Positions 15,837 through 28,519 of a stretch of DNA of 64,000 nt are shown here, piece after piece. This DNA comes from an uncultured Acidobacteriota bacterium (GTDB lineage: Bacteria; Acidobacteriota; UBA6911), in the NCBI GenBank assembly GCA_963843575.1, contig CAWJKZ010000013.1, positions 256,001 to 320,000 of the forward strand, written 5' to 3'. The translations under genes were made by a program, and so were the position numbers. Below the pieces are notes generated by a model. That model was not told where the DNA came from. It saw only the letters and a program-made list of their open reading frames with translations, and searched no databases. The first letter of the stretch is position 1. Each line of letters begins with the position of its first letter.

Positions 15837-17216
15837 ATGCAATACCATCTCGAGAATGAGCTGTTTCAGATTGACGTCGGCCGGGAATGGATCGTGTATG
15901 CGCCCTTGAAGCGGATTGCCTTCCGGGCCAATGGACTGCTCGTCAACCTGCTCTGCGACATCCAGGACGGAGTCGCCATAGATCCAGAGAGTTGCGGCGA
16001 AGCTCTCGCGAAGCTGCAGGAATGCGGAGTCCTCGCCGCCACCCACGAAGAGTCCCCGTCCCGCGGCGTGCGTGATCTGTCCGAAGAGCCCTTCCAGCCC
16101 GTCAACCTCACGCTCTTCCTGACATCGGACTGCAACCTCGCGTGCCGGTACTGCTACGGTGACGGCGGAGCCCGGCGCGCCAGCATGCCCATGTCGGTCG
16201 GTTTGGCGGCAATCGACGTTCTCTTTCGGAACGCACGGCGGAAGGGAGCCCACAAGGTCCATCTCGGATTCCACGGGGGCGGAGAACCGACCCTGAGGAT
16301 GGACACCCTGAAGCGGCTGGTCCGGCATGCGCGCAGGCTGGCCCACGAGCACAAGATCGACCTTGCTCTCGGACTCACGTCAAACGGGGTGATGCCCGAA
16401 GAGGCAGCCAGGTGGATCGCGTGCAATATTCATCAACTCAACATCTCGCTCGACGGCCCCGGGGCCATGCAGGATTTCCAGCGGCCCATGAGAAACGGCG
16501 CCGGATCTTCCGAGAGAGTCGCCAGGACCCTTCGGATCCTGGAAGAGCAGGGAACCCCCTATCACCTCCGCGGCACCGTCACCCGTATCTCGGAGGAACG
16601 GATTCCGGAGATCGTGAGTTACCTCACCGGCAAGTTCTCTCCTGCCAGCATCCAGCTGGAACCCATGTTCAGCTCGAGTCGAGCGGAGAAGGCCGGCATT
16701 GGGAAGCCCGATGAGGGCAGCTTTGTGCGGGGGTTTCTTGCGGCGGGGGAGATTGCCAGGAAGAAAGGGATCCGCCTGCATTTTTCCGGCGACAGGTTCC
16801 CCGCGATTTCGAGCCGTTTCTGCAGCATCGGCTGGGAGACCTTTGCCGTTACCCCCGAGGGTCGCGCCACGGCGTGCTTTGAAGTGTTGCGGGAAGAGGA
16901 CTCCCGGTCGAAGATTTTTTTCTTCGGGACGTTCAGCGACGGGCACGGTTTTTCCTTTCAGCCGGACCGGATCCGACACCTGCGCGTCCTGTCCGAGACC
17001 GAGTTGCCCCACTGCCGCGACTGCTTTGCCAAGTTCCACTGCGCGGGCGATTGCCGGGCGAAAGGGCTCTACCCGGACAGCAGGGCGACGGAGGTACAGG
17101 GCACGAGTCGGTGTCGCATAATCCAGGCCCTGACGAAGGCCAGGTTGGTTGAACTCCTGGAGTCGGTGCCGCTGGTCCGACTGGAAAACGCCGGGGAGGC
17201 ACCGAACGAATGCTGA
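15837..17216 (+). CDS. Radical SAM/SPASM-domain protein 1
   Basis: CNLACRYC, FHGGGEPTL, SLDGP; SPASM-like C...GRATAC...CRDC.....CAGDC...C. Confidence 0.92.
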   Translation: MQYHLENELFQIDVGREWIVYAPLKRIAFRANGLLVNLLCDIQDGVAIDPESCGEALAKLQECGVLAATHEESPSRGVRDLSEEPFQPVNLTLFLTSDCNLACRYCYGDGGARRASMPMSVGLAAIDVLFRNARRKGAHKVHLGFHGGGEPTLRMDTLKRLVRHARRLAHEHKIDLALGLTSNGVMPEEAARWIACNIHQLNISLDGPGAMQDFQRPMRNGAGSSERVARTLRILEEQGTPYHLRGTVTRISEERIPEIVSYLTGKFSPASIQLEPMFSSSRAEKAGIGKPDEGSFVRGFLAAGEIARKKGIRLHFSGDRFPAISSRFCSIGWETFAVTPEGRATACFEVLREEDSRSKIFFFGTFSDGHGFSFQPDRIRHLRVLSETELPHCRDCFAKFHCAGDCRAKGLYPDSRATEVQGTSRCRIIQALTKARLVELLESVPLVRLENAGEAPNEC

Positions 17217-17288
17217 AGATTCCTCCGCCGGCACGAGTTGGCGGAGATAAGCCAACCCGCTCCTGGACTCGCACTTTCCCGGGTTAGA

Positions 17289-18698
17289 ATGATGGTTTCG
17301 GATGCACGCTACATCTACGCTATCCCCATCTCGGGGAAGCACCTCGTCTATGCCCCGCTAAAAAAGCTGGCAGCCCTGGTAAATGGGAAGGCCGTTGCCT
17401 CGCTTGGCGGGTGGCTCCGGGATGACGCGGGGGGAAAACAGCCGATTGCCGGGCTGGAGCCTCTGTGCGAAGGGGTGGAGGAGCCTGACGGGTACATGCC
17501 GGAAATGAAGACCGGCCCGATTTCCCCCGCTTTTCTGGGTATCATCCCGTCGCGCTCGTGCAACCTCGCCTGTTCGTACTGCAGTTTCGGGGCTGCGCAC
17601 GCGCCGCGCGAGCAGATGAACCCCCTCGTGGCGGCTTCGGCCGTCGAGTGGATGGCGGAGAATTGTGCGCAGCGCGGGGAAACGAGGCTCGAGGTTCACT
17701 TTTTTGGCGGTGAACCTCTGGTCGCCGCCGACGTCGTCGAGGTTGTCGTCCACAAGGCCCGGGCGATGGCCGAGAAACTCGGGCTGGTCCCGCACCTGGA
17801 GCTCAGTACCAACGGCCTATTCGATCAGGACTGGGCCGGTTTCGTGGGTGACTACTTCGACACGGTCGTGCTTTCGCTGGACGGGCCCGCCGACATCCAC
17901 GACCGGCAAAGGCCGAGGCCGGGAGGCGGGGGTAGCTTCGAGGCGGTCGTCGCCACCGCACGTTGTCTGGCCCAGTCGCAGGCCGAACTCTGTCTGCGCG
18001 GATGCATCAGTTCGGGCAGCGTCGCCCGCATGGAGGAGATCGCGGGCTGGTTTTGCGAAGCCTTCGATCCCAAGGCCGTCAATTTCGAGACGCTGCAACC
18101 CACCGTCCGCTCCGACAGCGCGGGCCTGCGACCGCCCGATCCCTATGAATTTGCCCGGCACTTCATCCGAGCGGAGAAGGTCGCACGGGAGGCGGGAGTC
18201 ACAACGGTCCATGCCTCGGCTGAAATCGGCAAGAACAGATTCAGCTTCTGCCCGGTCGGGACCGACACCCTGGTCGTCTCCCCGGACGGTCGCGTCAGCA
18301 GCTGTTACCTCCCCGAGCGTGAGTGGAAGGCCCGGGGGCTGGATTTCCATGTCGGCAGCGTCGGGCGGCGACGCACGTTCGGCATCGACCTCGAACACAT
18401 CGAAGCGCTGCGCGATTGCGTGACGACCGAGCCGGATCGGTGCGCGCGATGTTTCTGCCGCTGGACCTGCTCCGGGGGGTGCCGCGTCAACCACTCCTAT
18501 CCGGGCTGTTCACGCCATTACGACGACTTCTGCATTCAGACGCGGATCATCACGGCGTGCAGGCTCCTGCTGTCGCTTGGCCTGCCGGACCTCGTCGAGC
18601 CGCTGATCAGCCGTCGCGAAGACATGCAGTTGCTGGCGTTAAAAACCTCGGATCGGCTTGACGCTTGGGAGAACCAGGATGCCGGGCGTGACCTCTGA
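17289..18698 (+). CDS. Radical SAM/SPASM-domain protein 2 (paralog of 1; start approximate)
   Basis: CNLACSYC, FFGGEPL, SLDGP; CPVG...GRVSSC...CARC.....CSGGC...C; N-terminal VYAPLK motif shared with protein 1. Confidence 0.92.
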   Translation: MMVSDARYIYAIPISGKHLVYAPLKKLAALVNGKAVASLGGWLRDDAGGKQPIAGLEPLCEGVEEPDGYMPEMKTGPISPAFLGIIPSRSCNLACSYCSFGAAHAPREQMNPLVAASAVEWMAENCAQRGETRLEVHFFGGEPLVAADVVEVVVHKARAMAEKLGLVPHLELSTNGLFDQDWAGFVGDYFDTVVLSLDGPADIHDRQRPRPGGGGSFEAVVATARCLAQSQAELCLRGCISSGSVARMEEIAGWFCEAFDPKAVNFETLQPTVRSDSAGLRPPDPYEFARHFIRAEKVAREAGVTTVHASAEIGKNRFSFCPVGTDTLVVSPDGRVSSCYLPEREWKARGLDFHVGSVGRRRTFGIDLEHIEALRDCVTTEPDRCARCFCRWTCSGGCRVNHSYPGCSRHYDDFCIQTRIITACRLLLSLGLPDLVEPLISRREDMQLLALKTSDRLDAWENQDAGRDL

Positions 18699-18978
18699 GC
18701 ACGGGGCGAGCTTTCGTGTCGCTGCGCACGTGAGCTGGGCACCGGAGAGCTGTGGGATCCGTGTCGTCGACAGGCAGACGAACGGGGTCCGCGTTCTCGA
18801 TTACCCACGGGCTGCCGTCTGGGACTGCGTCGCCCGCGGGAGGACCTATGTCCAGGCACTACGATTGCTGTGCGCGCTGTATCCGGTCGACGAGTCCGGC
18901 GCGGAGCGCATGGTCCTGCAATGCCTCTCGGAGTGGATGAAGTGGGGCCTCGTGACACGCGTGAACGAGCATGACTAA
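18679..18978 (+). CDS. Stand-alone PqqD-like RiPP recognition element (RRE)
   Basis: 99 aa with beta strands followed by AAVWD...LLCALY.V......V...L......GLV; overlaps both neighbouring genes. Confidence 0.65.
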   Translation: MPGVTSEHGASFRVAAHVSWAPESCGIRVVDRQTNGVRVLDYPRAAVWDCVARGRTYVQALRLLCALYPVDESGAERMVLQCLSEWMKWGLVTRVNEHD

Positions 18979-20932
18979 CCTCTCCATCGTCGCGGACTGC
19001 AATCTGAATTGCCCGTACTGCTTTTCACGGTCCGCCTACCGCGGGGAGGCTGCCGTGCGCAGTATGCCGGCGCGCCGTTTCGATCTCATGCTGGAAATCC
19101 TGGTTCGGTCGGGACAGGACCGGGTGCGTCTGTTGGGCGGGGAGCCCACGCTTCATGCCGAGTTCCCCTCGCTCGCGGGCCAGGTGGTTGCCCGAGGCCT
19201 CGGTTTGCTCGTCTTTTCAAACGGATCGATCCCCGAATCCTCGCTGCGGGTTCTCGAGGAAATCCCCGGCCTGAGCGTCATGGTCAACATCGCGGCGACC
19301 ATGGGGCAGAACGGCGAGTTGCCGCCGCGCCAGCGCGAGGTACTCGGACGACTGCGCGCCCGTGTGTCCCTGGCTTTCACGATCTGCTCTCCCAACCCGC
19401 CGCTCGATCGCCTGCTGAACCTGGTCGAGGAATACGGGCTGGACAAGAGCGTCTGCCTGGGCCTGGCTCACGCCTGTCTCGCCGGTGGCAACAGGTTCCT
19501 CGATCCCATGCATTATCCGCGCGTGGGCGAGCAGATCGTCCTGTTCGCCCTTCGTGCGCGCCAGGAACGGGTGGCGCTCAATTTCGACTGCGGCTTCGTG
19601 CCCTGCATGTTTCCCTCTGAGAGCCGTGAAGTACTGGGCAAAGCTTTGGAGGAGATCGGAACCCATTGCGGCCCGATCCCCGATATCCTGCCCGATGGGG
19701 ACGCCGTCGCGTGCTATCCGCTTGCCCCTCTCGGCCGGCTGCCCGTCTCGCGCGAAACCACCACCGGAGACCTGAGGAAGGCCTTCGCACCTGTTCTGGA
19801 ACCTTACCGGCAGGTGGGCATATACCGGAAGTGCTCCGCGTGTGACTGGTCGAGAGAGGGAAAGTGCGCGGGAGGCTGTCTGGCCGACGCGATGAGACGT
19901 CTGCGCCAAGGCGGGACGGTATTCCAGGTCCCGGCACCTGCCAGAGACCGGATCACCACCTCTCGCGGCGGCGACCCGACGGCTCCGGACGCCACGGATG
20001 GTTCCGAAACCACAGCACGGGCAAAGTGGGTGGTCCCCTACATCGATCAGCCCCTCTCGTTCTGGGATGAGATCGCTCAGGATTTCCGGGACGACATCAA
20101 GGAAGTCTATTTCCCCCTTCCGGGCGACCTGCTGGGTTCGGGGCGGCCTCCGCAGCCCGCACGGCATCTGGAGGATTTCCTCGCTCGCTCGCTCCTGGGC
20201 CGCTCGGTGCTGATAAACCCCATAACCCTGCCCGGGCCGGTGGGGCAGCTCGCCCCGGCCATAATCGAACGACTTCGCGAACTCACCGGGCGATTTCAGG
20301 TGTCCAGTGTTACCGTCTCGAATCCCGAACTGGCCGAGCGGATCCGCGAGGCTCTCCCCGGCCTCTCGATCACCGCATCCGTCCTGATGGACATCGCTCA
20401 TCCAAGACAGGTCCTGATGCTGCACGGCGTTCTGGATGGACTGGTGCCATCGGGCCGGATCATGCGAAATCTCCCGGCCCTGCGCGAACTCCGCGCGGCT
20501 TTTCGAGGCCGCATCCGGCTGATCGTCAACGAGTCGTGCATTCCGGATTGTCCGTATCGCACACAGCATTTTTACGAGATGGCGCGCTGCCGCGTCGTCC
20601 CTCCGGGGACGCCCTGCGCCGCGTTGCTGGAGAGGACTCCCTGGCTTCGACTCACCGGCACCTGGGTCCTGCCGCAGCACCTGCACTTCTACCGGGGGGT
20701 CTACGACGAGTTGAAACTGGCAGGAAGGGTCACGCTGCGCAACCCCGGCGACTACGTGCGTGTCCTGCGCGCGTACACCCGTGGAGATCCCCTCTCCCCG
20801 CACGAAATCGGCGGAGGTCCGGCATCGGTGCTGGACAAGATGCTTGTCAGCGAGGCTCTTTTTGCCCAGACCCTGAGTTGTTCGAAACAGTGCCACGACT
20901 GTCGGATTTGCCGTGACTACTATGATCGGTAA
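18971..20932 (+). CDS. Radical SAM/SPASM domain fused to a C-terminal U32-family (UbiU/UbiV/TrhP/RlhA-like) domain
   Basis: N-terminal CNLNCPYC, LLGGEPTLH and CSAC......CAGGC. From ~20024: EVYFP...GSGR, ITASV, LIVNESCIPDCPYR..H, LKLAGR, CxxxCxxCxxC. Confidence 0.82.
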   Translation: MTNLSIVADCNLNCPYCFSRSAYRGEAAVRSMPARRFDLMLEILVRSGQDRVRLLGGEPTLHAEFPSLAGQVVARGLGLLVFSNGSIPESSLRVLEEIPGLSVMVNIAATMGQNGELPPRQREVLGRLRARVSLAFTICSPNPPLDRLLNLVEEYGLDKSVCLGLAHACLAGGNRFLDPMHYPRVGEQIVLFALRARQERVALNFDCGFVPCMFPSESREVLGKALEEIGTHCGPIPDILPDGDAVACYPLAPLGRLPVSRETTTGDLRKAFAPVLEPYRQVGIYRKCSACDWSREGKCAGGCLADAMRRLRQGGTVFQVPAPARDRITTSRGGDPTAPDATDGSETTARAKWVVPYIDQPLSFWDEIAQDFRDDIKEVYFPLPGDLLGSGRPPQPARHLEDFLARSLLGRSVLINPITLPGPVGQLAPAIIERLRELTGRFQVSSVTVSNPELAERIREALPGLSITASVLMDIAHPRQVLMLHGVLDGLVPSGRIMRNLPALRELRAAFRGRIRLIVNESCIPDCPYRTQHFYEMARCRVVPPGTPCAALLERTPWLRLTGTWVLPQHLHFYRGVYDELKLAGRVTLRNPGDYVRVLRAYTRGDPLSPHEIGGGPASVLDKMLVSEALFAQTLSCSKQCHDCRICRDYYDR

Positions 20933-23684
20933 CCCCATGGAAGAGGCGGAGCGGATACACCCGACCCTGCCTATATTCCTGGTGAACGCGGGCGAACGCC
21001 CCGTCATATACACTCCAGGACACCTGGCCGTGATCGGTCACCGGGACGCACACATGCTCCGCCGGGCGTGGGGAAACGGCGAGCCCCCTCCGGACAACTC
21101 GGTTGCCTTCGCCGTTGTCCCGTGGATCGAGATGCGGTCTTGTGAAGCCTGGTCCGAATGGGAGCGGCTGCTGAACGAACCTTTCGCCCCGGAGTGCCTG
21201 ACCATTTATCCGGGGAATCAATGCAACCTTGCCTGCCCATATTGCTACGCGGGGGGCGCGGCCGGCCGGCAAGCGGGCCGCACGATCGCCCCGGCCGCGG
21301 TTGAGTCCGCGGCCCGGCTCGTCGCAAGGAACTGCGCCGACAAGCGCAAGGCATTTCAACTCGTTCTCCACGGCGGGGGCGAGCCGACGCTTCACTGGGA
21401 CCTGGTCGAGAGGATAGTCCTGATCACACGCCGCGTCGCGGACGAGATCGGTGCCGAGTGGCTGGGGTATATCGCGACCAATGGGGTGCTTTCGGAGACC
21501 AGGGCGATCTGGCTCGCGCGGAATTTCACGGTCGGGCTTTCGTGCGACGGTCCACCGGAAATTCAGGACCGGCAACGGCCTCTGGCGGACGGGTCCCCGT
21601 CATCCGGCGTCGTGGAACGCACGGCCCGTCTCGTCGTGGACACCGGTGGGCGCCTCGAGGTGCGCGCGACCATAACGCCGGCTGCGATTCCCCGTCAACG
21701 CGAGATAGTCGAATACCTGCACCACAAGTTGGGAACCCGGCACATGCATTTCGAGCCGCTGTACCGCGCGTGGACGGCTGGGAGCGACGGGGCGTTCTCG
21801 TTGGATGACGTCGAGCCGTTTGCAGAGCACTTCCGCGCCGCCCAGGACGCCGCCAAAAGCCTGGGGGCCGAGCTTTTCCTGTCGGGTGTGCGGGTGCACG
21901 AGATCCACGGCCCGTATTGCGATTTAATCCGGCAGGTGTTGCGGCTCACCCCAGACGGCACCGCCACCGCCTGCTTTCTCGACACCGGCGGCGATGCCGG
22001 ACCGGAACGCGCGTGCAGGATCGGTGCGATGGACGAATCCACCGGCGAGTTCCTCCTGGACCGCGAGAGGATTGCACTGCACCGAATGGCTGTCGGGCGG
22101 ATCCCGCCGGGCTGCCACGGATGCCCGAATGTTTTCCACTGTGCCCGCGACTGCCCCGAGACCTGTTACGCCCGGGCGCAGGACGAACTCGGGTCTGCCG
22201 CTGGGGACGCGCCGGGCGGCCGCCGGGGTGTTCGTTGCCGGATAGCACAGCGCCTGTTCCTTTCGTGGATCCGGGATGCGGCCTTCGGCACCCGCGCATC
22301 GTCCACCGCCGAGTCGCGGGCGCGTTTCTCCACCCACGGGTGGACCACGTTGCTGTCCCAGTTGCAGCGCGCCGCTCCACGCATCGACGCGGACGCGATC
22401 GCTAGGCAATGGAGCGCATTGGGGCGGGGATATCGGGTCGGTGAACGCCGGCCGCCCATGCCGATATGGGCGAAGAGGGGTTTCGAGGACGGGGGGCCCG
22501 AGGCATGGCGCAAATTGGACGCGCAAAACAGCAACGCAACGGAAACCGCCCCTCTCTCGATATATGTACACATTCCCTTCTGCGACCGAAGGTGCGGCTA
22601 TTGCGATTGCCGCTCCGTCCTCATGCCCCGGCGCAATAGAATCGAAGAATCGTCCTACTGTCGTGTCCTGCTGGAGGAAATCGAGGCCTGGTCGAAAAAC
22701 GAACATCTATCCAGGCGGCCAGTGACGACCGTCCACTTCGGCGGCGGCACGCCGAACTATCTCGGCTTCGATCTCTTTGACCGGATCGTCGACGAGCTGC
22801 GGAGGCGTTTCAACACCGTTCGCGAAACGGAGTGGGCGCTCGAAACCACCGGATCGCTCCTGACCCGTGCGCACCTGGCACAGCTGAAGGATGCGGGTTT
22901 CACCCGGCTCCACGTGGGGGTGCAGACGCTGGAAGACGGACTGCGCCGTGCCATTGGGAGACGACAAAGCGGAGCGGGCATACTCGAGGGAATCGCCCTG
23001 GCCATCGAAATGGGTTTCGTGTCGTCGGTCGACGTCATCTACGGTCTCCCGGGCCAGGAACTACCTGGGTTCCTTGACTCCCTGGTGCGGCTCGCCGAGA
23101 GCGGCGCCCAGGGTTTCTCGCTCTACCGGCTGAACGTCTCGGCGCGGAACCTCCGGTTCATTCAGAAACGGATGACGCGGGGACGGGATCCTCTCCACGA
23201 TTACGCCCTTCTGCAGGCCGGTGAACAGCTGTTGCGCGCATCCGGGTACCGGAAGAACCATTTCACGCACTATGCCCTGGCGGCGGACCGGAACTTGTAT
23301 TTCACGCACCCGCAACGCGGGGAAGACCTCCTGGCGCTGGGCGCGAGCGCGGACGGGTTTTTCGGCCACTATCACTACAGGCACATGGATTACAGCGGCT
23401 ACGTCGGCCCCGGGGCCGGGGTTTTTTGCAGTTTGCAGGGGGGATTGCCGGAGACCGAGCGGGAGAAGAGGATTCGACCCGTCACGGCCTCACTGATGGG
23501 AGCCGGCATCAAGGCCGACTTGCTGCGGCGGTTCGGGCTGCAGGACCTGCTCGAGGAATGGAAGGAGTCCGCCCTGCTCGAGCCGGGTTCCGATCCCGGC
23601 ACCTTTGCCCTCACAGCCAACGGCTCGTGGTTTATCGATCGGATGATCGATGACGCGGAGTCTGTCCCGGTTTCCGGGGGCTGA
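20922..23684 (+). CDS. Double radical SAM protein: SPASM-type domain fused to a HemN-like domain
   Basis: Domain 1 has CNLACPYC, HGGGEPTL and CHGC.....CARDC. Domain 2 has IYVHIPFCDRRCGYC, HFGGGTP, GVQT and DVIYGLPGQ. Confidence 0.88.
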   Translation: MIGNPMEEAERIHPTLPIFLVNAGERPVIYTPGHLAVIGHRDAHMLRRAWGNGEPPPDNSVAFAVVPWIEMRSCEAWSEWERLLNEPFAPECLTIYPGNQCNLACPYCYAGGAAGRQAGRTIAPAAVESAARLVARNCADKRKAFQLVLHGGGEPTLHWDLVERIVLITRRVADEIGAEWLGYIATNGVLSETRAIWLARNFTVGLSCDGPPEIQDRQRPLADGSPSSGVVERTARLVVDTGGRLEVRATITPAAIPRQREIVEYLHHKLGTRHMHFEPLYRAWTAGSDGAFSLDDVEPFAEHFRAAQDAAKSLGAELFLSGVRVHEIHGPYCDLIRQVLRLTPDGTATACFLDTGGDAGPERACRIGAMDESTGEFLLDRERIALHRMAVGRIPPGCHGCPNVFHCARDCPETCYARAQDELGSAAGDAPGGRRGVRCRIAQRLFLSWIRDAAFGTRASSTAESRARFSTHGWTTLLSQLQRAAPRIDADAIARQWSALGRGYRVGERRPPMPIWAKRGFEDGGPEAWRKLDAQNSNATETAPLSIYVHIPFCDRRCGYCDCRSVLMPRRNRIEESSYCRVLLEEIEAWSKNEHLSRRPVTTVHFGGGTPNYLGFDLFDRIVDELRRRFNTVRETEWALETTGSLLTRAHLAQLKDAGFTRLHVGVQTLEDGLRRAIGRRQSGAGILEGIALAIEMGFVSSVDVIYGLPGQELPGFLDSLVRLAESGAQGFSLYRLNVSARNLRFIQKRMTRGRDPLHDYALLQAGEQLLRASGYRKNHFTHYALAADRNLYFTHPQRGEDLLALGASADGFFGHYHYRHMDYSGYVGPGAGVFCSLQGGLPETEREKRIRPVTASLMGAGIKADLLRRFGLQDLLEEWKESALLEPGSDPGTFALTANGSWFIDRMIDDAESVPVSGG

Positions 23685-23717: not shown

Positions 23718-24878
23718 CTATATCGTTTCGCAGCGCACCCATTTCCCCGGATCCCGGATGGAAAGCGGCGCTGTCCTCGCCAGCCTCACTATCGTGTGCC
23801 CCGGGTGCTTGCGGCGCACTTCCGCGAGTGTATCCGGGTGGAATAAGAAGTAATCCCGCGCATCCCTGAAGGCGCAGCAACTTTCCAGCAATCCCTCGTC
23901 CAGAAATTTCTCGTGCTCGGATTGCACGACGGGCGCGAGGCTGCGGCGCCGGCCTCGCAGCTGCCTCAGCTTGCTCTGCAGCGAGCAGTCGTTTACCGAA
24001 ATGCCCAGTTCGTCGTCCTGGACCCGCCGCATCACCTCAAAGGTCAGAGCACGGCTGTCTCGGGAGATGCTGCCACGGTGGCCGTCCGGGGTGACAAAGT
24101 CCCTCCGGGGCCCGGGCAGCGCGGCCGATCTGCTGCCTGCCTCGAACATCAGTTCGTGGAGGTTCAGGAACCTCACCCCCGCCGCGCTCCAGGGCGCCAG
24201 GCAGCCGAGGAGCTTTTCCGCGTGCTCGGGTATCGCCGGGATCTCCACGGTCACATTGGGAATGAGCGAGCCCGCGGTCGCCAGGTTTCGCATGACGCCC
24301 GGGTGGTCGTACCCGGTGGCGGCCATGTTGAAGCGGATCTCGTCGATGCCGAGTTCTCCCAGATACCGGAGCTTCCCTGCATCGGCGCGGAGTCCGTTCG
24401 TGTAGACCCAGAAATATTTCTCGGGATAGCGGGTCTTGAACCAGGCGACCCAGTCGAACAGCCCCTCCGGGTCCGCCAACGGCTCGCCGCCGGAAAAGCT
24501 GATCCCGGTAATACGGGTGCGGGCGTGATTTCCCGCGATCTGTTCGGGGGTCTCGCCGAATGCCGAACCGCGGTAGTCCTTCCGGAGATCCCGCGGGCTG
24601 CAACAGAAGGGACACTCGAGGTTGCAGCTTGTGCTCGTGAATATGCAGTCCCAGGTGCCTTCTTTGCAGGCCTCGCACCCGGGCGACAGCTCGCCCACGT
24701 GAAGGGTCTCCCCCTGCGCCGCGATCCGAACTCCAGGGATGTCCCTGGCGGCTCCGGCCACCTGTTCGTCCCAGGTCTGCCGAAGATCGTCGAAGCCGGT
24801 TTTATCGTGATTCCGAGAATGCAGCTGCCGCTGCACGGTCTCCAGAAACGGGGGCGAAGTTCTATCCTGGATCGACAT
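23718..24878 (-). CDS. Radical SAM protein (non-SPASM) with additional N-terminal CxxC
   Basis: LSPGCEAC..G...C.F....CNLECPFCC, FSGGEPL, YTNG, DEIRFN, VEIPAIP, NLHEL. Confidence 0.88.
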   Translation of the reverse strand: MSIQDRTSPPFLETVQRQLHSRNHDKTGFDDLRQTWDEQVAGAARDIPGVRIAAQGETLHVGELSPGCEACKEGTWDCIFTSTSCNLECPFCCSPRDLRKDYRGSAFGETPEQIAGNHARTRITGISFSGGEPLADPEGLFDWVAWFKTRYPEKYFWVYTNGLRADAGKLRYLGELGIDEIRFNMAATGYDHPGVMRNLATAGSLIPNVTVEIPAIPEHAEKLLGCLAPWSAAGVRFLNLHELMFEAGSRSAALPGPRRDFVTPDGHRGSISRDSRALTFEVMRRVQDDELGISVNDCSLQSKLRQLRGRRRSLAPVVQSEHEKFLDEGLLESCCAFRDARDYFLFHPDTLAEVRRKHPGHTIVRLARTAPLSIRDPGKWVRCETI

Positions 24879-24973: not shown

Positions 24974-25408
24974 TCAGGCTGGGTGATTGGACAGAGCGGC
25001 CCGCGCGCCGGTTTTCGCGAGGCTGTAGCAGGGGGTCATGCGGGCGATCTTCAGGTATCCCTGGCTTACCAGTGCCTCGACAAACTCGGTTACGTCGGCG
25101 GCGACAACCTCGTGTCCGAGGCTGAAATGCCGGCAGAGGATTTCCGCCACCCCATGGCAGTTCCTCCTGCCGTCGATCGCGTGCCAGATCGCGGCACCCG
25201 CTTCGTTCAGCGAGATGGACTCGCCCGAGCAGCTGGTGAGCACGGTCTCCCCTGCGACAACGGTGATGCGGACCTTGCCCGCGTGCACCGGCACCGGCGA
25301 TTTCTCCACCGGCAGAGGTCTTTCCCCGGCCGTCGCAGTTCGCGGTGCGGACAAAGCGGATCCGGCGGCGGACATCATTGCTGAAACGATGAAATGTCTG
25401 CGATTCAT
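24974..25408 (-). CDS. PqqD-family RRE protein with putative Tat signal peptide
   Basis: LNEAGAAIWHAIDG.....VAEILCRHF......DVTEFVEALVSQGYL PqqD pattern; N-terminus MNRRHFIV plus hydrophobic stretch; GAGG SD. Confidence 0.82.
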   Translation of the reverse strand: MNRRHFIVSAMMSAAGSALSAPRTATAGERPLPVEKSPVPVHAGKVRITVVAGETVLTSCSGESISLNEAGAAIWHAIDGRRNCHGVAEILCRHFSLGHEVVAADVTEFVEALVSQGYLKIARMTPCYSLAKTGARAALSNHPA

Positions 25409-25450: not shown

Positions 25451-25777
25451 CTAGTTGGGATACCAGTAATGAGAATCCGACCCGCAACCGACGTACGAAA
25501 CGCACGAGCATTCCGTGTCGCAGGTGCAGACCTGGTTGCAAGTGCAGACCTGGTTGCACGTGCAGGTGGTTTCGCCCACCGCGTGACAGGCGCAGACGGA
25601 GTCACAGCAGCACTGGCCCGAGGCCTCCTGTGCCGGCGTCGGGGCGGCCTGGCGTTTGAACCCCGGTTTCTGATAACTTTCCTGCCCCCCGAGCTTAACC
25701 AGTCGGTAAAGTTGCGGCTCTTCCCCGCCCGGTTCCGGGGTGCGCTTCAGTCGGAACCGATTGTTTTTTTCTTCCAT
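25451..25777 (-). CDS. Putative RiPP precursor, 108 aa, Cys-rich CxC-repeat core with HYWYPN C-terminus
   Basis: GAAGG SD; hydrophilic Cys-free 55-aa leader; 14 Cys in the last 53 aa; directly upstream of an RRE and a radical SAM gene. Confidence 0.82.
   Translation of the reverse strand: MEEKNNRFRLKRTPEPGGEEPQLYRLVKLGGQESYQKPGFKRQAAPTPAQEASGQCCCDSVCACHAVGETTCTCNQVCTCNQVCTCDTECSCVSYVGCGSDSHYWYPN
25524..25565. repeat. 18-bp tandem repeat encoding CTCNQV units of the precursor
   Basis: GTGCAGACCTGGTTGCAA GTGCAGACCTGGTTGCAC GTGCAG. Confidence 0.9.
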
Positions 25778-25822
25778 GGAATGACCTTCGTATGAATTCC
25801 GTCCGCCGATTGGCGACACGAC

Positions 25823-28519
25823 TCAGTTCAGCGTTCTTACCAGGCGTAACCCCACATAGCCGTAACGGTCGTCGGACCGCTGGTAGCCGTAAGAGTAGCG
25901 ATGGGCCAGGCGCATCAGGTTGGCATCGCCAACATAGGGATTCGCCGAGCCCCCACGCGCCATCCTGTTACTGCTCGCGCCGGATGTCCCGAGATAATCG
26001 GTCACGGTCCCGGATGGATAGTAACCATCCCGATCCCAGCACCACTCCTCGGCGTTGCCGTGGACATCCTTGAGGTTCCAGGCGTTGGCCAGCTTCAGGC
26101 CGACCGGGTGGAGCGAGCCGCCGGAATTAGCGCAGAACCAGGCCACCGACTCCAGGGCCGGCAGCGCGCCTGCGGTGCAGCTGGTCTTCGTGGTGCTGTT
26201 GAATTTGGGCTCCTCGATGTGGAAGGGGCCCGAGCTGCCGGCACGGGCGAAGTACTCCCACTCACCCTCCGAGGGTAACCTGTAGCCGTTGGCGCTGAAG
26301 TTGCAGTAGATCGGATCGGACAGATAATTCGTCGCGTCGATCGGGGTGCGAAAATCGGCGTCCTTGTAGTAGCAACGCGTCAGACCGTTGCGCGCCGAGA
26401 GCAGGTTGGCGAAGAGGATCGCCTCGAACCACTTCACGCCGTCCACGGGCTCGGACATCGAGTGCGAGGTATCCAAAGGGTCGGCAGGGAGCGAGGGTTG
26501 TGCCGACCGCAAGTCCGCCCACATTTGCTGCGTTACCTCGGTCTCCATCACCGCGAAGCTCTTCGACAGGATGTGGGTGAACTGCGCCTCGTAGGAACTG
26601 TGGCCTATCTCCCCGCTGGGCGATCCCTGGGTGAATCCCGCCGACCCCGTGGCCGGGACAAACCGCATGTTGCCCACGATCCCATCAACGCTGTGCAGCC
26701 CTCCTCCCAGCCCTTCGGCGACCTTGACGGCCGTTATCGTCTGGCCCGACCTCGGGCAGTTGGTGGAACTGATCGTCAGGGTGCCCGTCATATGGGTCGA
26801 GTCTGTGAATGAGCCGCTGAAACTCAGGCCGCCCGAGCGCAGGTCGATCCGACTGGCCGATGTCGGGAGGCTGCCGATGGAGATCTTGCAGTTGTTGCAG
26901 TCGGTGGCGGAGACCTTGTAGGTGTGGACGAAATCGCGGATCGAACCGGAACTGTCCACGTTGAACGAAACGTCCGTCCCCTTCCAGCTTCCCCGGGTGG
27001 TCTGCGGGGTGGCGTCCGTCGTCGTGTGTGGCGGCACCCCGGTGTATTGCAGGCCGGTCGCCGTCATTTCCATTCTCAAGACGGTCATGCAGATGTTGGC
27101 CCCCGCCTCGACGGCCAGCGAGCCGACAAAGCCGTCCGGTATGCCGGAAAAAATCCCGCCCGCGCCGCAGAAGAACAGGGCGCTCTGTCCCGTGTATGGA
27201 ATCGTCTGCTGCTGGACCTGATTGCCCGCGGAGTCGTAGAGGGTGAACTTAACCTGAAACCCCGTGCCGGCGTAGGAGACGAAAGCCAGCCCCGTGTTCA
27301 CCATCGCCGATTTCTCGACTGGCAGCGTGAATGACCGGCCTTCGGGACTGTGGGCGATTCCGATCGAGTCGATCAGTTTGTTGCTGAACACATAGTTGTA
27401 GAAGAACGCCGTGGCTATCGAGCCCATCGGACTGCTGTCGCTCTGGATCGCGAGATAGCCGGAACGCACCTGGCTGTCGCCGACAAGGACGTATCTAGCC
27501 GTCGCCTTCGGTCCCAACGAAATGTCGAACGATGACGAACCGGTCATGTTGATGCTGTTCAACGTCCAGCCGCTGGACCAGGACTGGTCGTTCGCCCGGC
27601 GGAGCGTGGCCCGCCCCGCCCATATCGAGCTCGATTCATTCGAAACGATCAGGACCGTCTGGTACTCGCCCCCGAGGGCCAGCTGGGCGTAGGTAAATCG
27701 AGGGTCCGCCGACTGCGCGGCGGGGTGCGGCGGGAAACTCGTGTATTGCACGCCGTCGGGCGTGTTCTCCATGCGCAGGACCGTCATGCACAAGTTCTGG
27801 TCGGACTCGACGACCAGCGAACCGACGAACCCGTCGGCTATGCCCGGGAAGATGCCGCCCCCCGGGCCGGTGAAGAAGCGTGCGCTTTGCCCGTCGTAGT
27901 TGAGCGTCACCTGCTGGACCTGGCGGCCGACCCCGTCGAAGAGCGTGAATTTTATCGGGAAGCCTGTCTTTACGGAGGATACGTAAGCCAGCCCGGTGTT
28001 CACGCTGGCCGATTTCTCGGCCGCGAACGTGAATGCGCGGCCTTCATAGCTCGGGGGCACCCCGATCGAGTCGATCAGCTGATTCCCGACGATGTAATTG
28101 TAGAAAAATGCCGTGGCGATGTTGTTAATCGACGTGCTGCTCTGGATCGTCAAGTATCCGGAACGGGTGGTGTCGTCGCCGGCGAGGACGAACTTGCGGG
28201 TCGCCTTTGGGCCGAGCGAAATATCGAACGACGTTGAGCCCGTCTTCGCCGCGCCGTTCAGGGTCCATGCGGATGTCCACGACTGATCGTTTCCCTTTCG
28301 GAGGTTGGCCGTGCCGGACCAGGCCGTGCTCGACTCGTTGGAAACGACAAGGACGGTCTGGTACGACCCTCCCAGCGCCAGTTGGGCGTAGGTCAGACCG
28401 GCAGAAGTCTGGGCCTGATTGGTGTCGATCGCAAGACAAGCCAGTAGAATGGCGGACAGAATCCCCAGCGCTCTATATGCCACGGTACTCCTTTCCAGCC
28501 AGCGGACCGCAGCCATCAC
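25823..28519 (-). CDS. Secreted protein with two tandem ~225-aa repeats and a C-terminal FGE-sulfatase (SUMF1-like) domain
   Basis: Signal-like N-terminus; repeats TYAQLALGG...QYT..PPH at ~27724-28396 and ~27027-27697; ETEVT, YRLPSEGEWEY.ARAG, DVHGNAEEWCWD, RGGS, GLRLVR. Confidence 0.88.
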   Translation of the reverse strand: MMAAVRWLERSTVAYRALGILSAILLACLAIDTNQAQTSAGLTYAQLALGGSYQTVLVVSNESSTAWSGTANLRKGNDQSWTSAWTLNGAAKTGSTSFDISLGPKATRKFVLAGDDTTRSGYLTIQSSTSINNIATAFFYNYIVGNQLIDSIGVPPSYEGRAFTFAAEKSASVNTGLAYVSSVKTGFPIKFTLFDGVGRQVQQVTLNYDGQSARFFTGPGGGIFPGIADGFVGSLVVESDQNLCMTVLRMENTPDGVQYTSFPPHPAAQSADPRFTYAQLALGGEYQTVLIVSNESSSIWAGRATLRRANDQSWSSGWTLNSINMTGSSSFDISLGPKATARYVLVGDSQVRSGYLAIQSDSSPMGSIATAFFYNYVFSNKLIDSIGIAHSPEGRSFTLPVEKSAMVNTGLAFVSYAGTGFQVKFTLYDSAGNQVQQQTIPYTGQSALFFCGAGGIFSGIPDGFVGSLAVEAGANICMTVLRMEMTATGLQYTGVPPHTTTDATPQTTRGSWKGTDVSFNVDSSGSIRDFVHTYKVSATDCNNCKISIGSLPTSASRIDLRSGGLSFSGSFTDSTHMTGTLTISSTNCPRSGQTITAVKVAEGLGGGLHSVDGIVGNMRFVPATGSAGFTQGSPSGEIGHSSYEAQFTHILSKSFAVMETEVTQQMWADLRSAQPSLPADPLDTSHSMSEPVDGVKWFEAILFANLLSARNGLTRCYYKDADFRTPIDATNYLSDPIYCNFSANGYRLPSEGEWEYFARAGSSGPFHIEEPKFNSTTKTSCTAGALPALESVAWFCANSGGSLHPVGLKLANAWNLKDVHGNAEEWCWDRDGYYPSGTVTDYLGTSGASSNRMARGGSANPYVGDANLMRLAHRYSYGYQRSDDRYGYVGLRLVRTLN

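Follow-up and report, generated by a model that had tools for sequence, protein, structure and literature searches.

Hydroxylation without O2 from an organic oxygen donor is known, according to PMC10990095, only for proteins of the U32 family, and most of their subfamilies are described there as uncharacterised. Those with assigned roles, UbiU/UbiV, TrhP (YegQ) and RlhA (YdcP), are iron-sulphur (Fe-S) proteins needed for O2-independent, prephenate-dependent hydroxylation (PMC6599085, PMC5727448, PMC6747719, PMC10990095) of ubiquinone precursors, tRNA U34 and 23S rRNA C2501, respectively, and every characterised U32-dependent hydroxylation in those accounts targets an aromatic or heteroaromatic ring (PMC10990095, PMC6599085, PMC5727448). 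Prephenate is reported as the oxygen donor for UbiU/UbiV, with an unidentified oxidant also required (PMC10990095). In peptide maturation, hydroxylation of an aromatic ring is described for QhpG, a flavin monooxygenase that dihydroxylates a Trp of QhpC for cysteine tryptophylquinone (PMC7876137). Here we describe a gene in which a U32-like domain is fused to a radical SAM enzyme, at positions 18971 to 20932 of a stretch of 64,000 nucleotides ('the window') from an uncultured Acidobacteriota bacterium of lineage UBA6911 (assembly GCA_963843575.1, contig CAWJKZ010000013.1, positions 256,001 to 320,000). An original prediction, made from the letters of the window alone, had read this gene as a radical SAM/SPASM enzyme with a U32-family domain and proposed an O2-independent peptide hydroxylase in the biosynthesis of a ribosomally synthesised and post-translationally modified peptide (RiPP); the background on TrhP, RlhA and UbiU/UbiV on which it drew, as Fe-S factors of O2-independent hydroxylation, agrees with the four sources cited above for them. 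Boundaries within the protein were set with alignment A1 (the protein and 39 homologues picked from 120 listed, 40 full-length sequences) and with a structural model whose local confidence is given as predicted local distance difference test (pLDDT) values:

18971..20932, forward strand: the fusion gene, ATG start, 653 amino acids; radical SAM/SPASM module, linker and U32-like Fe-S TIM barrel
18971..19906, forward strand: N-terminal radical SAM/SPASM domain, residues 1-312, delimited by PF04055 and by the A1 profile against solved SPASM enzymes
19907..20011, forward strand: flexible linker of varying length, residues 313-347, pLDDT below 50 and gapped in the alignment
20021..20929, forward strand: U32-like TIM-barrel domain, residues 351-653, with seven invariant Cys and K582-x-x-G585-R586

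The C-terminal part of this protein is, with high confidence, a divergent member of the U32 superfamily that belongs to no characterised subfamily. The motifs from which a U32 domain had been predicted are all in place, NESCIPDCPYR at residues 520-530 followed by H533, LKLAGR at 581-586 and the terminal CxxxCxxCxxC at 637-647 (C637-x3-C641-x2-C644-x2-C647), and N520, E521, C523, C527, R530, H533, C549, K582, G585, R586, C637, C641, C644 and C647 are invariant in A1. Residues 351-653 served as the query in an exhaustive phmmer search of 1.84 billion representatives, which returned 492 proteins at E ≤1e-3, of which 129 reach ≤1e-10 and 53 reach ≤1e-30. They comprise a group of close relatives, fused and standalone, with 40-59% identity and a second group of many standalone proteins, 310-370 residues long, matched over the whole domain at 22-36% identity. 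When 28 distant relatives were compared with the Pfam model PF01136, 18 scored above its gathering cut-off, 5 fell below it and 5 gave no match; none of the four close standalone relatives scanned reached it, and the domain alone found no match in NCBIfam and nothing significant by phmmer among PDB sequences. For a profile built from 53 U32-like sequences of the domain search (A2), the best match is the U32 structure 5d88, at E 4.2e-18 compared with 0.014 for the runner-up, and profile-profile comparison gave a 90.9% probability against UbiU of E. coli and, by hhalign, 99.1% (E 5e-19, 230 columns) against 14 canonical U32 proteins, namely UbiU and 13 proteins from genomes of the same phylum. 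The AlphaFold2 model of the domain (pLDDT 94.6; predicted template modelling score, pTM, 0.92) again has 5d88 as its top Foldseek match in the PDB (E 2.2e-8), and VIA-align against representatives gave 5d88 a Z of 17.8 with a root-mean-square deviation of 3.1 Å over 217 residues, the next match standing at 12.2 and the generic TIM-barrel plateau at about 11; in the ESM Atlas, a 'putative Peptidase family U32' cluster is among the three nearest to the domain. The protein in 5d88, Mk0906 of Methanopyrus kandleri, was the only U32 structure found in the structure and profile searches and is the best match in both, but it shares only 15% identity with the domain and its profile match ends ahead of the Cys-motif region. 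The structural check proposed with the original prediction thus comes out in its favour, and the U32 assignment is right at the level of the superfamily.

Residues shared with characterised proteins extend across the barrel. In the hhalign alignment, Y25, R35, N66 and S115 of UbiU, invariant in canonical proteins, correspond to Y380, R392, N416 and S470, which are invariant or near-invariant in this family, and K270, G273 and R274, a strand motif of K-I-E-G-R type invariant in all 14 canonical sequences, correspond to the invariant K582, G585 and R586. The cluster ligand C169 of UbiU aligns with C523, the sole canonical ligand position to do so. The seven invariant Cys of the domain (C523, C527, C549, C637, C641, C644 and C647) most likely hold one or two Fe-S clusters, and their number would allow either a single cluster with spare ligands or two clusters. 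The spacing of C637-x3-C641-x2-C644 (window positions 20879-20911) is that of a radical SAM cluster motif. The gene is single-copy in its genome and is itself the only source of PF01136 signal there; no canonical gene of UbiU/UbiV, TrhP or RlhA type was found in the assembly, which is about 88% complete, and, unlike UbiU/UbiV, the domain has no paired U32 partner gene in the genome. Among 401 evenly sampled genomes of the phylum, 10 (this one included) hold a member of the close family at E ≤1e-55 and 31 more only weaker, canonical-type U32 matches. The domain shares superfamily, fold and a likewise anaerobic setting with UbiU, TrhP and RlhA; it differs from them in being fused to a radical SAM/SPASM module and in its presumed substrate, which would be a peptide tail where theirs are RNA or quinones.

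The N-terminal module belongs to the radical SAM superfamily: residues 6-106 match Radical_SAM (PF04055) with 45.4 bits, above the cut-off of 29.5, and an E of 1.3e-11, a CX3CX2C motif at C10/C14/C17 is at least 90% conserved in A1, and a GGEP motif occupies residues 56-59. Enzymes of the SPASM subfamily, to which the module probably belongs, carry a seven-Cys pattern, CX9-15GX4C ... CX2CX5CX3C ... C. Here eight auxiliary Cys are invariant in A1 (C207, C212, C233, C248, C288, C291, C299 and C303), with the arrays C233-x9-G-x4-C248 and C288-x2-C291-x7-C299-x3-C303, the latter having x7 between C291 and C299 where the subfamily pattern has x5. The A1 profile aligns end-to-end with PqqE (6c8v, residues 6-311), SuiB (5v1q, 9-307) and anSME (4k37, 8-307), and residues 241-320 align with the SPASM region of CteB (5wgg). 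The Pfam SPASM model PF13186 gave no report at E ≤0.01, the NCBIfam models for SCIFF (TIGR03974; 24.3 bits against 425) and PapB (NF047865; 26.6 against 340) did not reach their cut-offs, and the module is without an N-terminal RiPP recognition element. The auxiliary Cys motifs had been expected to end near position 19900, and the last invariant one, C303, is encoded at 19877-19879; the linker expected to follow them is the disordered segment of variable length listed above. A 598-residue open reading frame (ORF) on the opposite strand (19217..21013) was rejected as the real gene here, all homology evidence being in the forward frame.

The fusion is conserved and modular. A length-restricted homologue search of 5.8 billion proteins, with 8000 candidates scored, returned 216 proteins at E ≤1e-3; the best 120 all lie at E ≤1.6e-170, most cover 90-100% of the query, and Bryobacterales, Armatimonadota, Vecturithrix, KSB1 and Desulfatibacillaceae are among the sources named for them. 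A scan limited to one genome per species gave 120 pattern matches, 116 of them encoding a relative, from which 80 loci were kept (L001-L080). The U32-like region is present in 73 of these, sharing an ORF with the radical SAM/SPASM module in 42 (three of which also carry a HemN-like extension), standing as a separate ORF in 29 and fused only to a HemN-like domain in two (L064 and L066). That the fusion should recur in other genomes had been set as a check on it, and one ORF in 42 of 73 loci across many phyla excludes an assembly artefact. In 61 of the 73 the radical SAM module immediately precedes the U32-like region, and in 36 one part of the 923-residue protein encoded next to our gene immediately follows it. 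Longer fusions occur among the representatives (P0129, 1577 residues; P0131, 1563 residues), and modules of the 923-residue type are joined to relatives of the fusion protein in P0129, P0131 and L022. Four modules, the first radical SAM/SPASM, the U32-like, a second radical SAM/SPASM and the HemN-like, are shuffled, split and fused (P0129, P0131, L022, L026, L027, L064, L066) in ORFs of up to about 1590 residues; such shuffling is a hint, of the Rosetta-stone type, that the four act together.

Across phyla the U32-like domain retains 46-65% identity. In a FastTree tree of 74 cassette-linked, 46 distant standalone and 14 canonical U32 domains, which has long branches and SH-like supports only, all 74 cassette-linked domains form one clade with a support of 100, apart from both standalone and canonical proteins; fused and split states interleave within the tree, with at least nine parsimony changes, one or two of them forced by well-supported branches. 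The full-length AlphaFold2 model has a mean pLDDT of 87.4 and two well-folded domains with a pTM of 0.52, which suggests two tethered modules without a predicted fixed interface.

The setting of the gene is that of peptide maturation, as a role in RiPP biosynthesis had implied, and a Cys-rich precursor is present. The counts below come from tblastn of the window's proteins against the 80 loci with non-overlapping best assignments:

15837..17216, forward strand: radical SAM/SPASM maturase A, 459 amino acids, SCIFF/PapB-like and below every NCBIfam cut-off; a relative in 57 loci
17238..18698, forward strand: radical SAM/SPASM maturase B, 486 amino acids, SCIFF/PapB-like; a relative in 69 loci
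18658..18978, forward strand: small PqqD-like protein, 106 amino acids, PF05402 E 4.9e-4, below cut-off; a relative at the same position in 38 loci
20913..23684, forward strand: 923-residue protein, radical SAM/SPASM plus HemN/HutW-like radical SAM; the SPASM part in 54 loci and the HemN-like part in 51
23718..24878, reverse strand: radical SAM protein, 386 amino acids, activase/HxsC-like; a relative in 14 loci
24974..25408, reverse strand: PqqD-family protein, 144 amino acids, PF05402 E 3.7e-12
25451..25819, reverse strand: precursor peptide ORF, 122 amino acids, Cys-rich, with C-x-C-[DN]-x-V repeats and the end HYWYPN
25823..28519, reverse strand: protein with an FGE-sulfatase domain, 898 amino acids, PF03781 E 4.6e-27

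Two radical SAM/SPASM maturases, the small PqqD-like protein, the fusion protein and the radical SAM/SPASM protein with its HemN-like part form a conserved cassette, an assignment that we make with great confidence. The stop of the small PqqD-like gene overlaps the start of the fusion gene by 8 nucleotides and the start of the 923-residue ORF overlaps its 3' end; the fusion gene is translationally coupled to both neighbours. The 106-residue protein is likely a peptide-binding chaperone. Among NCBIfam models, TIGR03974, NF047865 and TIGR03906 fit the neighbouring maturases best, at no more than 123.6 bits against 425. On the other strand, four genes converge on this operon, encoding the FGE-sulfatase protein, the Cys-rich ORF, the PqqD-family protein and a fifth radical SAM protein.

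The precursor probably starts at 25777, which would make it 108 residues long, and the 6.68-Mb genome holds no second ORF of its kind. When the 80 loci were scanned, independently of any motif, for ORFs whose tail is rich in Cys, 52 such ORFs were found in 45 loci; 48 of the ORFs end in x-Y-W-x-P-x, three in close variants and one in an unrelated sequence, with HYWYPN as the end of 16 and HYWYPT of 11. Eight short precursors, when aligned, share invariant Y104, W105 and P107 as well as the Cys and Val of the repeats, and the terminal Tyr-Trp are the only invariant aromatics of the family. Elsewhere the precursors are mostly proteins of 300-600 residues: eight of these longer forms, compared with Pfam, comprise five WD40 propellers (PF00400, E ≤4e-55) and three with an Ig-like N_BRCA1_IG domain. 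They begin with a segment of E-P-E-V-Y type, followed by an RRxF hydrophobic stretch that by eye resembles a putative twin-arginine signal; the Pfam TAT-signal model gave one weak match among the precursors scanned. The order of parts is accordingly a leader-like E-P-E-V-Y segment, the RRxF stretch, usually a WD40 or Ig-like domain, the C-x-C-[DN]-x-V repeats and the x-Y-W-x-P-x end, of which the precursor in the window is a short form that has neither signal nor propeller.

Two of the reverse-strand proteins have features of their own. The N-terminus of the 144-residue PqqD-family protein, MNRRHFIVSAMMSAAGSALSAP, resembles by eye a twin-arginine export signal, which would be odd for a cytoplasmic peptide chaperone, and tblastn found no relative of this protein in the 80 loci. 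The 898-residue protein, whose gene is the next one upstream of the precursor gene and shares its strand, has an N-terminal hydrophobic segment, two internal repeats of about 270 residues (by eye) and a C-terminal SUMF1-like domain; it is probably no core part of the cassette, because only weak partial matches were found, in two of the 80 loci (L007 and L042).

How might such a cassette work? In the mechanism that we propose, the fusion protein would act as a two-module maturase within a conserved set of several radical SAM enzymes, and the cassette would modify a ribosomal precursor at its Cys-rich C-terminus. Here that precursor is a short peptide; in most other genomes it is a WD40 or Ig-like protein with a segment that resembles an export signal, whose tail would be the target. 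The radical SAM/SPASM module (residues 1-312) would presumably receive its substrate from the PqqD-like protein encoded just upstream, and the U32 module would oxidise, without O2, an aromatic side chain of the near-invariant terminal Tyr-Trp. The likeliest reaction would be a hydroxylation in which the oxygen comes from prephenate, the chemistry proposed for UbiU/UbiV, TrhP and RlhA. The radical SAM module tethered to the U32 module would either provide the oxidising step or equivalents or cross-link the same tail. The genome encodes a chorismate mutase, so prephenate is available, a weak argument given that the enzyme is near-universal. Most of the related records belong to lineages whose names are those of anaerobes, such as Desulfobacterota, Anaerolineae, Bacteroidales, Coriobacteriia and Smithellaceae, and this fits an O2-free chemistry. 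The comparisons establish what the domains are, that their fusion recurs, the cassette and the precursor family; from them we infer Fe-S binding, a peptide as the substrate of the U32 module and hydroxylation, and we regard the hydroxylase role as plausible; that the module hydroxylates the peptide without O2 is a reading we hold tentatively, at somewhat less than an even chance.

Several observations weigh against it. In vitro hydroxylation has been demonstrated, according to PMC10990095, for no U32 protein as yet. A CX6CX15CX3/4C motif for a [4Fe-4S] cluster is reported in eight of ten U32 families, UbiU having CX6CX16CX38C (PMC6747719), and a Glu eight residues ahead of the first Cys is essential in TrhP (E162) and RlhA (E161) (PMC6599085). 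In the fusion protein the Cys are instead arranged as CX3CX21C (C523/C527/C549) with a terminal CX3CX2CX2C, and the position of the essential Glu (E161 of UbiU) is taken by R516, an invariant Glu, E521, lying five residues after R516 and two before C523. The domain would work most like the UbiU/TrhP/RlhA class, but two defining sequence features of that class are not kept; it is filed as a divergent U32 member outside the characterised subfamilies. The protein also stays below the PF01136 gathering cut-off of 22.4 bits (14.7 bits, E 0.018, over profile positions 13-56 only), and hhalign of the family profile found no match to UbiV of E. coli (1.7% probability). Five of the 80 loci (L075, L076, L077, L079, L080) have a gene like the N-terminal module and no U32-like region in the flanks fetched, and the full-length model, with its pTM of 0.52 and disordered linker, predicts no active site common to the two modules.

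The context of distant relatives counts on the same side. It rests on one lineage of standalone proteins, P0202-like, the nearest one examined, from 59 metagenome loci (L113-L171), in which none of 41 neighbouring ORFs from 11 loci encodes a radical SAM or PqqD protein; without peptide-maturation neighbours in this lineage, the subfamily would not be intrinsically peptide-directed. The P0202-like proteins share the CX3C...CX3CX2CX2C pattern. Their neighbours include FAD and 2Fe-2S subunits of xanthine-dehydrogenase type, aldehyde:ferredoxin oxidoreductase, URO-D-like proteins and MFS transporters, and further methyltransferases, TilS and 3-dehydroquinate synthase. There are hints here of a role in anaerobic small-molecule, perhaps aromatic, metabolism.

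A bolder form of the hydroxylase reading would have the cassette build, without O2, a quinone-type or hydroxylated cross-linked redox centre at the terminal Tyr-Trp of thioether-stapled tails, on exported WD40 or Ig-like proteins and on short peptides, the fused enzyme coupling radical SAM oxidation to delivery by the U32 module of oxygen derived from prephenate. We consider this a long shot worth stating.

Other functions for the module have to be set beside hydroxylation. Peptide oxidation by the U32 module may involve no oxygen transfer: once the ring is oxidised, the thiolate of a Cys in the tail would take the part of the nucleophile in place of hydroxide from prephenate, and a Cys-Trp or Cys-Tyr cross-link would result. 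Alternatively, the module may carry out a dehydrogenation or a C-terminal decarboxylation. The U32 homology and the linkage to the cassette apply to this equally; many invariant Cys lie beside the invariant Tyr-Trp of the precursor tail, the displaced hydroxylase Glu and the different Cys motif would fit an altered chemistry, and the mechanism proposed for U32 proteins runs via a ring cation quenched by a nucleophile (PMC10990095). No U32 protein is known to do so, however, the two SCIFF/PapB-like maturases already account for Cys cross-linking, and the retention of R392, N416, S470, K582 and R586 could equally mean that a co-substrate site is kept. On balance we find such an oxidation doubtful, if well worth keeping in mind.

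The seven invariant Cys, taken with a module that is fused to either of two radical SAM partners or free beside them and a full-length model with no fixed interface, would also be expected of an Fe-S electron-transfer or scaffold partner of the radical SAM/SPASM and HemN-like modules, one that re-reduces or re-oxidises their clusters or holds the substrate tail and has no catalytic step of its own; U32 clusters, it has been suggested, may serve in an electron-transfer chain (PMC10990095). A full TIM barrel with conserved pocket-type residues that catalytic U32 proteins also have nevertheless exceeds what a relay needs, SPASM domains already bear auxiliary clusters, and the domain is strongly constrained, at 46-65% identity across phyla, all of which makes a purely supporting part unlikely in our judgement. 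The module may instead act on something other than the peptide, such as an RNA or a small aromatic metabolite, its gene only sharing a locus with those of the maturases. This would accord with the P0202-like relatives, which adjoin the genes listed above and, among the neighbours scanned, none for peptide maturation. Yet the module is joined to a peptide maturase in 42 of 73 loci and elsewhere to the HemN-like maturase, the cassette U32 domains form a single well-supported clade apart from the standalone group, and the genome has no other U32 gene, all of which leaves this reading very unlikely. A leader or processing protease, as the naming of family U32 after 'collagenase PrtC' would have it, is the most improbable of all. 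In its favour, PrtC and HP0169 are reported collagenases (PMC5727448), several homologues bear the JGI label 'collagenase-like PrtC family protease', and the nine cluster genes scanned include no other evident protease. Against it, the invariant residues, Cys, Lys and Arg, are those of Fe-S proteins of the U32 type; in related loci a segment that by eye resembles an export signal follows the leader in most precursors, so that signal peptidase could remove the leader; and all U32 proteins with a genetically defined role are, according to PMC6599085, PMC6747719 and PMC10990095, hydroxylation factors.

Compared with described peptide-maturation systems, the cassette resembles the SCIFF, ranthipeptide and related radical SAM/SPASM systems (ScfB/CteB, PapB, QhpD) with PqqD-type chaperones. 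It has in common with them a precursor rich in Cys, a PqqD-like protein and several radical SAM/SPASM maturases, and a D/N-x-x-C spacing within the precursor core is reminiscent of known thioether motifs. It differs from them in maturases that fall far below the curated cut-offs (for example 123.6 against 425 bits), in precursors with an x-Y-W-x-P-x end, many of them entire WD40 or Ig-like proteins, and in the addition of the U32 and HemN-like modules. The closest analogy in logic is the maturation of quinohemoprotein amine dehydrogenase by way of QhpC, QhpD and QhpG, where thioethers made by a radical SAM/SPASM enzyme and hydroxylation of an aromatic residue come together on a Cys-rich polypeptide, as they would here; the QhpD family is also among the NCBIfam matches of the cassette. 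There, however, the hydroxylase QhpG is an O2-dependent flavoprotein, whereas the candidate here is a U32 Fe-S protein, and no amine dehydrogenase genes are present, so that the likeness is one of analogy only. A literature search, with the supplements of the U32 survey outside its range, found no description of a radical SAM-U32 fusion, of a cassette of this kind, of a U32 protein in RiPP biosynthesis or other peptide modification, or of precursors with a HYWYP tail; a U32 role in RiPP biosynthesis was suspected from the outset to be undescribed, and no paper linking the two was found. The cassette is apparently undescribed, and widespread.

For the study of U32 chemistry, the likely substrate is a short encoded peptide, and an in vitro system for it would be far easier than one for tRNA, rRNA or membrane-bound quinone intermediates. 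If the cassette does build a redox centre at the terminal Tyr-Trp, it would offer the first peptide or protein substrate of a U32 enzyme, the first radical SAM module to act as the source of the 'unknown oxidant' in hydroxylation by U32 proteins, and, with a soluble peptide as substrate, a way to reconstitute U32 hydroxylase chemistry in vitro. The fusion protein would give a first functional handle on a cassette found in at least 10 phyla and, should O2-independent hydroxylation of the peptide prove true, would bring a further reaction type to anaerobic RiPP and protein-tail chemistry.

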